This document shows, piece after piece, positions 2,739 through 36,299 of a DNA stretch of 64,000 nucleotides. The first letter of the stretch is position 1. Every line of letters begins with the position of its first letter. Source of the stretch: Eledone cirrhosa (lineage: Eukaryota). The notes below the pieces were generated by a model. The model did not search any database, had not been told where the DNA came from, and was given only the letters and a program-made list of their open reading frames with translations. Where the stretch lies: assembly GCA_964016885.1 (NCBI GenBank), contig OZ024745.1:107074001-107138000 (forward strand), written 5' to 3'. The translations under genes were made by a program, and so were the position numbers.

Positions 2739-2946
2739 ATAGGAACGAGTAGGACCCCGACGGCTGAGCTCAAGCCGTTTCGACGGCTAATTCTGGACGG
2801 CTAATAATGTCCAGAATTAGCCGACGAAACGGCTTGAGCTCAGCCGTCGGGGCCCTACTCGTTCCTATTACCCACTCTACTACCCTAACTATTGAGTACT
2901 TTGGTGTGTTATGGTCCACTTGGTTCCTTACCACATTTCCTTCGTT
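2739..2946 (+). mobile_element. Fold-back element in (TA)n with 3' half of a hammerhead, copy 1
   Basis: ~60-bp inverted arms spanning 2739-2868; GAAA-cggct..agccg-TC; shared tail tacccactctactacc..ggttccttaccac. Confidence 0.85.
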
Positions 2947-3112
2947 ATATATATATATATATAAACACGTGCGCGCGCACATACACACACATATATATAT
3001 TTATACATATATATACACACGCGCGCGCGCATATACACACATATATATATATTTATACATATATATAAATATAAATATATATATATTTATTATTTATTAT
3101 AAGAACCGATTA

Positions 3113-3165
3113 AAGTTTAAGCAAAGAATCGCTGCTTTCACCCTTAACGGTATCTTCTGAAACTC
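3113..3165 (-). ncRNA. Hammerhead-like fold with variant core CAGAAGA
   Basis: rc: gagttt CAGAAGA t accgttaagggt GAAA gcag..ttgc TT aaactt; related fragment at ~16413-16460. Confidence 0.5.
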
Positions 3166-3329
3166 AGAATTCCTAATTAGCTGTCTTCTATTTGCTCTAC
3201 AGGTTTATATATATATATATATATATATATATATATATATATATATATATATATATATATATATATATATATATATATATATATATATATATATATATAT
3301 ATATATATATATATATATATATATATAAA

Positions 3330-3718
3330 TACTTAGGTTAATAGGAGTTAGGTATTGTATACCCGTGTCGCATTAAGTAATTGTGTTTGTGTAGCCTATG
3401 CACACCCTCTGCACCCTACTATCGACGCCAGCCCATCTATGGTTCAGCTAACCACTCGACTCCCGGGAGTGAATATGACCGCAGCTAGTAAACAAGGACC
3501 CACACCCCACCCTCCCGCACCAAAATTAGACTTATCGTCCCCTACTTTTGCTCTTTACTCTCTTTACTCTTTGTTCTTGAATGTTTGGTTGGTAGAGTTC
3601 ATAACACGAATCAAACCCCTTTTATAGCTCTGACGAATCCTACGGTTACGTAAGGAAGAAACATTGTAAGCCAATAAAAATCTTTTGATGTTGTAGACGC
3701 TCTTGTGTTCTTTATCAT
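3330..3718 (+). mobile_element. Penelope-pLTR-like non-coding element between (TA)n runs
   Basis: Flanked by TA runs; ends with an HHR, then AATAAA and a T-rich tail. Confidence 0.6.
3627..3671 (+). ncRNA. Type I minimal hammerhead ribozyme
   Basis: gct CTGACGA a tcctacg gtta cgtaagga a GAAA c att GTA agc. Confidence 0.75.
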
Positions 3719-4130
3719 ATATATATATATATACATTTATTAAAATAACAGATTATTATTATTACTATATGACATAACCTGTGTATTTGCTGGCATGGGC
3801 GTGCATCTGTGCGCTTATGTTAGTTGATATATTAAATTATCTATATTTATCTCCAAATCACTGATTTGTCGAGCAAACTTGTCAAAACCACTTCTAAAAA
3901 AAATTTTTTTTGGGGTGTTAGTAGGCGTCAGTCATCTTACCATCCCATTCCTTCTAACTAGCCTCTGTGTCACGTGATTGATTCTTTAGAATCGGCCATT
4001 TGACTTGAAGCAGTGAGAATTTCGGTACATAGAATCCAGTCCTCGCAAGCTGTTCGATCTACCGAATTATTATTATTTTTATATGAGCCGCCAGTGTCCG
4101 CGCATTGCCTGGAGACTTAACTGAGAATAG

Positions 4131-31740: not shown

Positions 31741-34700
31741 AATATATTTATCATTATTTTTATTAATTTCTTTTACCCAAATATCAAGACATGAATGCAA
31801 TCAAGCGATTACTGAGTGAGTTGGTATGAGGCCATGTTGATTAATTGATATAAATTTGTTTTGTGCTAAATGATTTACAATGATTTTTCTAATAATAGAT
31901 TCGAAGATTTTGCTACATGTATTTAATAAACTAATTGATCTAAAGTTTTTTTTGTTTGTTTTTGAAATCAGAAGCTAGGTTCTGTTTGTGTATAAGAAAA
32001 ACTTTGGCAATTTTCCAAACGCTGAATGTGTGAGCAGTAGAATATAAATATTAAATGAATATGATGAGTTGAACTAATTCAAATACAAATCCTTTAATGT
32101 AATTGTGGGGAATGCCGTGAAGACCGAAAGTTAATTTTCGAGGAAAACGATTTTATATAAGCAAAATATTAGTTGAAGTTCAAATGAAAGCACAATTTGT
32201 AATATCTAAATTAAGTAAGACCAATCCCATTATCTCAAGAAGAATCCGAAGAAAATTACTAATTAAATAAAACAATTATAGCAACGTTTTAAGAGTAATA
32301 TAATTATCGCCAATTAATTGAGTGATAGTATATATTGAATTTAGTCTAGAATTTACATAATGCCAAAACTTTTCAGTGTGTTTACTTTTCAATGTTTCCT
32401 TTTCAGAGTTATAAATCTTTCTACGTCTTCCTACATCTGTAACACATAAAAATCACTTATATCTGTTGTTAATTTAAAGGGGTTTAAATATATATATATA
32501 TATATTCCAGATGGGCTTTACACTGTCTTCTGTACATTTTAAGAGTATCAAATATCAATTTTTCACATAGCTAGAGAAAGGGCAGGGTTGCAAGAATTAT
32601 AGAGGTGAGGAGGAGAAAGCACTACATTTATTTGAATATGGAGTTAATCCCCCAACGGAAACCTGGCCTGAATGATGATAACAAGTCATATGGTGGTTTT
32701 AGATCAGATGACGGATTAAATTTAGTACCTATCTGATGGACTTGCTTACAGTTCATGTCTACCCAATTTGACGATGCTATCTCAAAATACACTTTCCAAA
32801 GATGGCTCACTGGAGAAACGGAGCTGGAAACACTTCTTTGAAAAGCGGAGCTCTTACATGATATATTTTTACATAGAATGAAAATATTGGATAGATTAAA
32901 ATTTATTGATTATTAATGAAGTATACTTAGAATTCAATACATAGAAGTCTTTAGTAGTTTATTTTGACTGATCCAGTAGCCTATTGCTCTATATGGTAAG
33001 TTCTTCAGAAAGAACGAAGAAGTATATATCTCTTGCTTCACAATTAAAAATTATTTGATAAGGATGTATTGATTTTCAGTTATAGGTCTTCATATTGATT
33101 TGTTTGGCGTATGGCCTGCAAACAATCGAACGTTTGTTATCGAAACACATATCTACTAAAGCATATATTCCCTGCTTTAGTCTGATCTAATCTGATATCA
33201 TTCTGTACACCCCATCATCATGTGTTTCAATCATTTAAATCCAAATCCTACCCGACAGAAAGGAGTCACGAACCATAACATAATCTTAGATAATCTGAGA
33301 TAATCATTGTGTGATTTTAACTCAAATATTCGCGGTACTAGGTCTATCTCAGGTTGTCAAAGGATAGGGGTGGTGGTGAATTTCTCCAGACACTGAAAGA
33401 TAGGCGCGTAAGACGATGCAAAAAATACATGGTACATGCACGGAAAAATGAACAGGGAGAACAGAAGAAGGTTTAACTTATCGAAGATATATTTTTATAC
33501 AAGCAATAAAATAAATTAAATATTACAATAAGGCAAAACAAAGTAGCACCTGTCGGTGATTGAAGATAAAAAGAGAGAGAAAAATAAAAGCAGAATTTAA
33601 CCGAGATAAAATAAGGATATTCATAGGACTGGGGTGAGGGATACAAAGAGAGAAAAAGGTGAAAAGGTGAAGGAGAGAGAGAGAGAGAGAGAGAGGACAA
33701 CCAGGGAAATATTGCCATAGCGAAAAAAAAAAAAATATATATATATATAGTAGTTCGAACACGGCGGCTGTGTGCACTACCGTAAATATTAAACAATCCT
33801 AGATTATGCACGAAAAAATAGAAGCACGAACAAATGCGACAGGGGACACAATAACATCATTTTCGCTCATTAGCCGCCAAAGTGGGATAGACACTGTATG
33901 ATTTCAACTCAATTAGTGACGCTATCGGAGTATAGCTCAGTCTATTAGAGGATAGAGGTGGGCATTTAAATACATGTATATAACGTCTTTCTGTTTGTGT
34001 GTGTCCTATATCCATGTTTGTCTATTAGCTGCCTGTTACAATATGAAGAAATATATTTTACATTTATTTGGATAGTTATTTCAAATTCCTCATTATTTTC
34101 AAAATTATTCGAAAATCAGTGGTTAATGTCTTTCCTGAGAAATATGGAACCGAAAGGGTTAATGACTGAAACCAGCTAACTGTATTCTTTGTTAACATGA
34201 AAGGAACAGTTAATTCCTGAAAGAAGTAGGAGCACCCTTACAGTAAACACAAAGAAGCAAACATACACACACACGTACACCAGGTCCGAATACAGAGGAG
34301 GTGAACTCCCACTGTCATTGTCTCCATCTCTCTCCCTCTCCCCATCTATCAGTATTATGATCAAATGGGGTCCCACACGCTACCTGCCCTACGGCCCCAG
34401 AGGACAGAATAGAGATTTTTGTTGTTGCTGCTTAGTTTATATCAGCCGACATCTAACAGACGTATAAAAACGATGCAACATTAAACATTTCTTTCTCCCA
34501 GATACATGCATCAGAAATTATTCATTATTCATTATTTATTTCAGTTTTCTAACATATTTGGGTATGATTGGAGGAATATTTGGTGAATACTTTGAGTAGA
34601 AATGTTGCAGGGTAATAGTTGTTGTTGTTTCGTCAGCTCTGATCCAGAGGATTAGTGATCAAATCTGTTTCAGGCTAGACCATACAAACTTTACTTTTCA

Positions 34701-34829
34701 CTTTATATAATGTGTACTGTGTTTTTATGTAAACTGTATTGGCAAGTTTTGTAGTGTATGAAATGCTAATATATTTATTATAAAGAAATGGCGTAACAAA
34801 TTGTAAATATTCTATCTATCTTTGTAGGG

Positions 34830-35000
34830 CGGGTAAAATTCCAGAGATCCATGGACGAGTTCTCTACAATGATCTCGATTTTTCATTATCGCCGCTGTCC
34901 CGCTTTTCCCAGAGACCAGTGTCTGTCCTTAGGGCATCAACACATGTCACCATCTGCCTCCCTCTTCCTGTGTGTCCGTGTAGGGGCTCCCACAGGAGAT
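34830..35000 (-). pseudogene. RTE-clade LINE 3' fragment
   Basis: rc LLWEPLHGHTGRGRQMVTCVDALRTDTG. Confidence 0.6.
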
Positions 35001-36065
35001 TGTAAACATTATAAAGAATAAATTTAGCGATTCAGGCCGTAGTTTGTCACGAGTAACAAATAACCAACGGAAACGATATTAACTTTTCTTTGTATCATAA
35101 AATCCCTGGAATATTCTATAGGTGGTTATCGCTTGAATGGAATTGAAACGCTGATGTATGTTTTCTTAGCTGGAGCAAACCAAACACATAGCCAGCCTAT
35201 CTTTCCTGCTTTGCTTGCAATTTTCCGCAAAGCAAACGTAATATAACAGATTTCATTCGTAATTTTCCTATTTATTTATCTCTGTATCTATTCATGTATT
35301 TTATTTATTTATATTTTTTTTATTTTTTCGGTTGGGGTGAAGATGAGGTTTTGGGATCCCAGGTGTGGGGATGGGAGTTAACATTTGATGGAAGATCCTA
35401 ATTAGATCTGTACGTCATATTATATGACATTGGTCAGCGTCCCTATAGCAGCACTAATACAACAATACCGAATGTCTTTCTATAATATCGATTAAGTGCT
35501 TATTTCATATTCGGACGGACGTACACCAACACCATAACTAAAACTATCACAACCACCACCACCACCACCACCATCAATATTAAGTGTGCCACAGCAACAT
35601 TCTTCGTTCCTGTATATCAGATACTATATAATGTTGGTATGCGTCTTACTGTTTGTTTGTGTGTAGTTAAATTATCTAGTATATGGTTTCAGTTATTCCT
35701 TGATATATTCATGTAACGAAACACGAGCAACTCTGTTCCTTGATAGAAAGCTGGTATGTCTTGTTTCTACAGTAAGACCGGACAGAAATCCCTTTGAGTA
35801 TTCTATTCTAGTTTCCATCAATGTTGATGTCCAAATTGAAAGTAGCTGTCGTTTTCATATGACTTAAAGGTCCCAACCTTACCTCTCATTATTTCTTCTC
35901 TCAGTGTGTTTAATGGTTAAGTGTGACAACGAAGATATGAATACACACACACACACACATACACACACACACACATATATATATATATATATATATATAT
36001 ATATATATATATATATATATATATCTTGTGTGTTACACCTTTATTCTTTTAACTATATATATATA

Positions 36066-36299
36066 TAGGAAAATGTTCAAGACCCCGGCGGCAGAGCTCA
36101 AGCCGTTTCGACAGCTATTTCTGGACGCGTCCAGAGTGGGTAATAGGAAAATGTTCAAGACCCCGACGGTAGAGCTCAAGGCGTCAAAACGGCTTGAGCT
36201 CTGCCGTCGGGGTCTTGAACATTTTCCTATTAGCCACTCTACTACCCTAAGTATTGAGTACTCTGGTGCGTTATGGTCCACCTGGTTCCTTACCACACA
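36066..36299 (+). mobile_element. Fold-back half-hammerhead element in (TA)n, copy 3, doubly rearranged
   Basis: Two inverted segments (36066, 36137) precede the sense arm and the common tail. Confidence 0.8.

Follow-up and report, generated by a model that had tools for sequence, protein, structure and literature searches.

Three short palindromes in a 64,000-nucleotide stretch of Eledone cirrhosa DNA (contig OZ024745.1, positions 107,074,001 to 107,138,000; hereafter the window) each carry the 3' half, and only the 3' half, of a hammerhead-like ribozyme motif, raising the question of how such a folded-back product comes about. A preliminary description of the window proposed that one complementary DNA (cDNA) snaps back on the ribozyme hairpin and primes itself. 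The three hairpins are short head-to-head insertions, of about 200 bp and in (TA)n repeats, of a very abundant Penelope-like element (PLE); probably, two target-primed cDNAs ran off the likely capped 5' end of the RNA and were joined end to end.

The hairpins and their family

Element positions are counted from the A of TTT-A-GTCC as +1, which places the predicted ribozyme cut after +41. Copy 1 opens with an inverted arm on the minus strand (2739..2798, element +61 to +2), the outer TAT of which is shared with (TA)n. It is followed by a 10-nt junction filler (2799..2808), whose first 7 nt repeat the arm's own GGCTAAT, by a sense arm on the plus strand (2809..2868, +2 to +61) with the 3' half of the hammerhead-like motif, and by a plus-strand tail (2869..2948, +62 to +141), which is present on one arm only and represents the start of the element's sequence next to its open reading frame (ORF). 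The arms of copy 1 show 2 mismatches in 60 nt.

The arms of copy 2 (inverted, 26931..26989, minus strand, +61 to +3; sense, 26991..27049, plus strand, +3 to +61) match without a mismatch over 59 nt around a single central C, and an equally valid reading extends the inverted arm to 26992, as +61 to +1 with an additional C. The junction TTCTGGA-C-TCCAGAA (26983..26997, plus strand) represents, in its C form, the recurrent junction that was commonest among those tested, and the plus-strand tail (27050..27129, +62 to +141) finishes in a TAT shared with (TA)n. The type I hammerhead-like 3' half of this copy (27007..27033, plus strand), recognised from the sequence, the fold of an uninverted copy and pair counts, is composed of GAAA (27007-27010), stem III (27011-27014 with 27024-27027) closing a palindromic loop, a predicted cleavage site after C 27029, and the stem I strand GGGG (27030-27033).

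Copy 3 is built from more pieces. A first inverted piece (36065..36126, minus strand, +61 to +2) is followed by GC and a short sense piece (36127..36135, plus strand), which covers +2..+8 in 7 nt (36129-36135) and shares its AGA with a second inverted piece (36133..36180, minus strand) running from +71, with 10 nt of tail included, to about +26. A plus-strand sense arm with a shortened tail (36181..36299) then runs from about +14 to near +130 in (TA)n. The main palindrome pairs 36133-36180 with 36193-36240 with 2 mismatches in 48 nt, and its axis lies about 60 nt to the right of the turn given in the preliminary description. The turn at ttctggac/tccaga reported there is found in copies 1 and 2, but copy 3, with its two inverted pieces and its main axis elsewhere, does not simply turn there. 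Copies 1 and 2 each have GAAA, stem III and GUC, no CTGANGA upstream, and (TA)n flanks, just as had been described. No other part of the element was found in the 64-kb window, and an Rfam scan of the window gave only microsatellite-driven microRNA noise among the matches listed (150 of 219).

The palindromes are not a product of chance, since a 25-mer of the tail has 25,427 exact matches in the 3.0-Gb genome, compared with 0 for the reversed control. The arm and tail of copy 2 together gave 31 full-length identical matches among the 40 scored of 920 candidates. Long copies extend upstream into a 1.2-kb untranslated region and the end of the ORF, one locus (L001) extends downstream into the ORF, and uninverted copies reach an ORF with reverse transcriptase (RT) and C-terminal GIY-YIG motifs. 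At locus L234 this ORF has 786 open codons with YRDD and VIY-x-YIG, together with RWR at 104, DKT at 184, CNCPDRSIC at 639, CNLC at 737, and CKH at 765; it contains no CX2-5CxxC, and only one cysteine lies inside the GIY-YIG core, as judged by eye. The ORF has 2,312 homologues, unnamed and of about 700 amino acids, while Pfam and PDB searches with it returned no informative match, and the domain calls rest on the motifs. Partial tandems or pseudo-long terminal repeats (pseudo-LTRs) are found in L128, with a period of 3,548 nt, and in L234.

The Hydra-clade PLEs with a C-terminal endonuclease (EN+) insert in (TA)n, and inverted 5' copies and tails are typical of PLEs (Craig et al. 2021, PMC8557442); here and below, comparisons refer to those parts of the cited papers that were considered. 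The present family has in common with that clade a single ORF that combines RT with a C-terminal GIY-YIG, the (TA)n target, an inverted 5' copy, a tail and partial tandems, as well as the motifs RWR (for RWK), DKT, CxCX5C, CxxC, and CxH. Because of these motifs and the (TA)n insertion, we assign the family to the EN+ PLEs and, putatively, to their Hydra clade. The 3.5-kb unit is longer than the generally <3 kb of the clade, which is a tendency rather than a strict rule, and the tail is 80 nt long and one-sided, compared with 30-40 nt in the clade. Further differences are the non-canonical hammerhead core and the large share of palindromes of about 200 bp, which make up most copies here. The family may already be catalogued in the supplement of PMC8557442 or in Repbase. 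At L236 (G000:C1:21325900-21332000), a different 488-codon ORF with a GIY-YIG-like end lies between two copies of the pseudo-LTR region, and is possibly another PLE family nested in the element.

Arm ends, junctions and the number of cDNAs

The ends of the arms were compared in the first 100 tail matches in genome order, a few of which are one composite insertion seen from both sides. An inverted arm was found by BLAST in 72 of them, and several of the other 28 hold short inverted remnants. In 58 of the 72, the inverted arm starts at +61 and is joined to (TA)n; six more align only from +43..+59, of which five have diverged flanks and, by eye, the same start. The outer ends at +58..61 and +138..141 both finish in TAT shared with the target, and 17 of 47 distinct uninverted contexts, a sample enriched for minor subfamilies, likewise end at +58..61. 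The inner ends fall at -6..+8 in 54 of the 100 tail (sense) arms and in 51 of the 72 inverted arms, and only 10 of the 100 tail arms extend past -15. As the preliminary description had anticipated, the turns are placed in a strongly non-random manner, and its view of the hairpins as independent, reproducible retrotransposition products with only the 3' half of the motif is borne out. At L045, L054, L070, L097, and L233, insertions are stacked in each other's (TA)n flanks or the tail is found on both arms.

It had also been noted that the arms are alike within a copy and unlike between copies. Over all fetched loci, the mean arm difference is about 0.6 within a copy compared with about 3.2 between copies, and the arms are identical in 44 of 70 palindromes; the differences between copies, which had been read as a sign that the inversions arose or were homogenised separately, are subfamily variants. 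An origin after insertion, by gene conversion or by template switching during replication, or an artefact in the form of fold-backs in the long-read assembly, would draw on the fact that palindromes are unstable and can be homogenised, and no listed short-read contig piece spans a whole palindrome. However, the same two outer ends and the same inner point recur at dozens of unlinked loci and in several subfamilies, the arms decay independently, as in copy 1, and six short-read contigs, possibly of the same sample as the assembly, also run from about +59 into (TA)n. We consider such an origin most improbable. The family is present in three short-read contig runs.

If a single cDNA had primed itself, the inverted arm would be expected to lie inside the tail arm. 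In 17 of 67 copies (3 or 4 of them alignment-ambiguous), the inverted arm instead goes beyond the tail arm on the 5' side by more than 10 nt, the reverse applies to 8 of 67, and in 4 of 67 (L048, L060, L078, and L118) the two arms share no overlap at all. In long insertions each arm is truncated on its own, with a +61 arm of about 5 kb against a tail arm of 0.9 kb at L234, and of about 1.3 kb against 0.5 kb at L223.

The junctions point in the same direction. TTCTGGA(C/G)TCCAGAA has 2,337 strand matches, and its mirror forms, when oriented by the tail, comprise 8 C and 9 G among 20 loci (3 not orientable) and 32 C and 55 G genome-wide in one subfamily. Two cDNA ends reading GACTC, with the cap-derived C included, would pair across a C-C mismatch, so that both TTCTGGACTCCAGAA and TTCTGGAGTCCAGAA are expected relative to the tail, whereas a tail-primed cDNA alone cannot make the C form seen in window copy 2. 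One self-copying cDNA can give neither non-overlapping arms, nor far longer inverted arms, nor both mirror forms of the junction. The two arms of an insertion are nearly always of the same subfamily (70 palindromes), which fits the same RNA having been copied twice and accounts for the matching arms from which the preliminary description had argued.

We also looked for chimeric arms derived from two RNAs, and L077 is the sole fair candidate among the 70 palindromes, giving no support for two RNA molecules. The L077 palindrome is young, and its arms differ at three adjacent diagnostic bases that match two subfamily types, making two RNA templates or conversion possible. L116 and L069 look like decay, and L019 is composed of two neighbouring insertions joined.

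Self-priming has been suggested in two forms. In the first, put forward in the preliminary description, one cDNA would fold on the hammerhead stem II hairpin, turn at its apex and prime itself, and this is in keeping with the near identity of the arms within a copy, with a turn within about 10 nt of the predicted apex, and with self-priming being the published reading of PLE junction palindromes (PMC3846280). A fold-back on the hairpin, however, would require the cDNA to reach the apex and the left arm to carry the stem's own 5' strand. None of the three window copies contains the apex loop, whose predicted place is some 4-10 nt 5' of +1. What the left arm carries is the perfect reverse complement of the 3' strand, and the short copies lack the 5' half of the motif, including the apex and the 5' strand of stem II. 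The fixed +61 outer end joined to (TA)n would be left unexplained, and the inverted arms found outside or beyond the tail arm are a contradiction unless all of them are later deletions. The C-form junction is likewise impossible from a tail-primed cDNA, and when the left arm of copy 2 is folded as DNA, its last three bases are paired with a probability of <=0.14. The snap-back of a single cDNA on the ribozyme hairpin is scarcely probable on these grounds; a snap-back of one of two cDNAs may nevertheless take place at the final joining step.

The second form is self-priming on an antisense RNA, with the tail arising from endonuclease resolution of the intermediate. It stems from the Penelope elements of Adineta vaga (Arkhipova et al. 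2013, PMC3846280), which also have head-to-head inverted pseudo-LTRs, junction palindromes and a one-sided tail, and whose pseudo-LTR contains TATA- and initiator-like motifs, as here. The self-priming part is how head-to-head palindromes are hypothesised to arise in print (PMC3846280), and the resolution part is the published guess at the origin of the tail (PMC8557442). The present data favour two cDNAs on a sense RNA, since the pile-up of ends and the extra G described below mark the 5' end of the sense strand at an initiator-like motif, both arms behave alike as cDNAs, and the tail has been linked in vitro to two sites of RT initiation (PMC11167929). We regard the antisense route as very unlikely for this family.

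The inner end, the ribozyme motif and other repeats of the window

Direct junctions of the element with (TA)n number 883 at +1, 119 at +41/42, and 40 at +28 in the whole genome, the patterns used for the three sites being unequal in length. The site at +1 is nearly invariant as TTTAGTC or TTCAGTC, with variable bases upstream, and we take it to resemble an initiator. An AT-rich, TATA-like box is located 29-36 nt from +1, reading TATTTAAA in 15 and TATTTATT in 18 of the 47 uninverted contexts.

An extra G that belongs to neither the element nor the target is frequent before +1. All 47 uninverted contexts have T or C as the genomic base at -1, and 413 (TA)n junctions have A, C, or G before +1, of which the first 100 listed comprise 65 G, 25 C, and 10 A by hand count. 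At the +28 junctions, a G was found in 3 of 40 (Fisher p 1e-10 versus +1). In other retroelements, a copied cap or a non-templated addition at the template end leaves an added G. RNA start sites inside the pseudo-LTR have been described for PLEs (PMC2377424; PMC8557442).

At the L043 junction, the tail arm begins at -4 and carries an extra G; the sequence there, TCATTT, is another initiator-like motif, pointing to a minor start upstream of +1. We also considered whether TTTAG/TCC acts as a 3' splice site, and rejected this because what stands before the junctions is a lone G rather than any upstream exon that recurs. Ribozyme cleavage was rejected as the source of the common 5' end, the pile-up being located at +1 and not at +42.

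Several observations weigh against two cDNAs that run off a capped RNA start. The start site and the cap are deduced from DNA only, a search for RNA runs that contain the element having listed none, the upstream TATA-like box is weak and variable, and the ends spread over about 10 nt, some reaching -3/-4. If junctions with T before +1 are counted too, an extra letter is lacking in 65 of the first 100, and G is seen in only 16 (hand count), and the extra G could come from non-templated C addition at any template end. The ratio of the two mirror junction forms in the one subfamily departs from 1:1 (p 0.018), and the non-overlapping and asymmetric arms could in part be later deletions in palindromes. 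Among the long copies, L128 and L234, both long enough, cross the upstream +1 seamlessly, and 0 of 20 long loci start at the upstream +1. Finally, a short distal hairpin extension of stem II is predicted at about -3..+5, so a stop near +1 caused by RNA structure retains some probability.

The last point leads to a rival in which two cDNAs are made as proposed, but the stop near +1 is due to RNA structure or to an uncapped, processed end. The distal hairpin is mostly kept across subfamilies, with 85% of cells paired, and the spread of the ends and the seamless passage of long copies through +1 can be counted in its favour. On the other hand, stems I, III, and II, which are GC-rich and stronger than this hairpin, do not hold up the enzyme on its way there, the extra G is found at +1 but hardly at +28, and TTTAGTC/TTCAGTC is nearly invariant, which makes a structural stop or a processed end unlikely compared with run-off at a capped end.

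The predicted start site lies in the stem II loop of the hammerhead-like motif, a loop of about 40 nt. In the 47 uninverted contexts, the 5' core is UUGANAA in 33, with position 7 free (G, A, C, or U), CUGAGAA (unpaired) in 12, and other in 2. The canonical CUGANGA (C3-G8), expected upstream in uninverted relatives under the preliminary description, was found in 0 of these 47 contexts, an outcome that the description had itself named as refuting its model, and no C3-G8 occurs among 100 listed of 218 matches to a search pattern that left out the commonest four-C form. The minimum-energy fold of one uninverted copy is a hammerhead three-way junction with the 7-nt core unpaired, and it is no more stable than shuffles (z = -0.32). 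The stems are paired in 94.7% of cells over 12 copies, with no two-sided changes among these close relatives. Features of type I hammerheads are present, namely, the three-way junction, G10.1-C11.1, GAAA, and an NUH site, and there was no Rfam match at the gathering score in 3 loci.

A U3-A8 variant of the hammerhead is known from the Cercyon PLEs of Schistosoma (Cervera and de la Pena 2014, PMC4209133), and the present motif shares with it U3-A8 in place of C3-G8, the G10.1-C11.1 pair, and a palindromic loop 3. It differs in having 5 pairs in stem III, in its long stem II loop, and in that some subfamilies combine C3 with A8. Self-cleavage is doubtful in these C3-A8 subfamilies, and the (TA)n junctions at the predicted cut site, +41/42, are not decisive for cleavage.

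The first bases of the element are in some copies present more than once. A tandem 14-nt unit, spanning from GUC at +2..4 to GUC at +16..18, has 131 genome matches, and in 29 loci the re-copied unit is located on the +61 arm in 14, on the tail arm in 12, and is unclear in 3. The filler of window copy 1 begins with half of this unit, as would be expected if the cDNA end GAC had re-paired at +16..+18. It is plausible that the 14-nt repeats come from the cDNA end realigning on the RNA, with later slippage as the alternative. At L009 (G000:C9, near 21963017-21963091), six tandem 14-nt units occupy the junction, a pattern like that of a telomerase-related RT adding repeats.

The window contains further repeats. 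At 6276-6517 lies an unrelated long palindrome (85% over 242 nt), rich in TA at its centre and bordered by (TA)n on its far side; it may represent a similar head-to-head product of another family or a miniature inverted-repeat transposable element (MITE). A long inverted repeat at 8987-9254 (81% over 279 nt), again followed by (TA)n, is MITE-like. A repeat family of about 190 nt with a GAGTTCAAATCC box, which we presume to be similar to short interspersed nuclear elements, is abundant in both orientations, with examples at 18315-18690, 24325-24530, 28215-28332, 29750-30344, 38032-38224, 40842-41492, and 49506-49700. A segment at about 4070-4250 is repeated in direct orientation at about 4630-4810 (period of about 560 nt) and has an inverted match at 63386-63565.

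A proposed route of insertion and its relation to known systems

In the route that we consider probable, the promoter of the pseudo-LTR would start the RNA at the initiator-like +1 inside the stem II loop of the ribozyme, leaving an RNA 5' end with only the 3' half of the hammerhead. The GIY-YIG endonuclease would cut both (TA)n strands, as suggested by the fixed ends and by published in vitro work, and the RT would start at +138..141 from one target end and at +58..61 from the other. Both RT sites end in TAT, which would be able to pair with the target, and the 80-nt tail would be the stretch between the two sites. Each cDNA would then end where the RNA ends, frequently with one more C placed opposite the cap. 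The palindrome would result once the two 3' ends have either annealed via micro-palindromes, such as one GACTC pairing with another over a C-C mismatch, or been trimmed and filled. A minority of cDNAs passing +1 would yield the long, classical PLE copies, which would need read-through RNA, strand transfer through +1..+41, or a circular RNA.

The two halves of this route have counterparts in other retroelements. In L1 twin priming, two target-primed cDNAs lead to an inversion, the second start being variable and the arms being without overlap. In contrast, both starts are fixed and close to each other here, so that the arms form an inverted repeat. In LTR elements, the minus-strand strong-stop DNA is a cDNA that extends to the capped 5' end, runs off it and may include a copy of the cap.

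Within the PLEs, the nearest experimental system discussed here is Poseidon of the green anole, PAc (Frangieh et al. 2024, PMC11167929), where purified PLE protein cuts and extends both strands, starting at two RNA sites that bound the tail. PAc cuts AT-rich DNA on both strands, and the ribozyme is dispensable for insertion in vitro (PMC11167929). The two internal RT starts bounding the tail are common to both systems. The starts of PAc, however, have no homology to the cut DNA, whereas both starts end in TAT here and can pair with (TA)n; moreover, the start site is the same for both strands in PAc, whereas one +61 arm is nearly always combined with one +141 arm in the palindromes of our family. 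Neither inversions nor the 5' end of the RNA are treated in the parts of PMC11167929 considered here.

Earlier work has already described this class of element, its inverted ends and tail, and the U3-A8 core. The origin of the head-to-head ends and tails of PLEs is stated as unresolved in the available text of PMC3846280, PMC8557442, and PMC11167929, and a twin-priming or cap account of PLE inversions was not found in the literature searched, in which most subscription papers are missing. More tentatively, and with a somewhat less than even chance of being right in all its parts, PLEs might use a programmed twin priming, in which one complex would copy the capped RNA twice from two fixed sites. 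Most events would then end as 'strong-stop' pairs joined by the cap-completed GACTC palindrome, full-length copies would arise via strand transfer or a ribozyme-made circular template, and the first 14 nt would be re-copied in telomerase-like cycles.

The family numbers about 25,000 copies, most of which stopped at a single step, and provides a natural readout of the insertion reaction. The copies locate both RT starts, as well as the probable start of the RNA, with a precision of a few bases, and they argue for a sense, capped template over antisense self-priming. The model is testable directly in the published in vitro system, and for the host genome it predicts thousands of short perfect hairpins.

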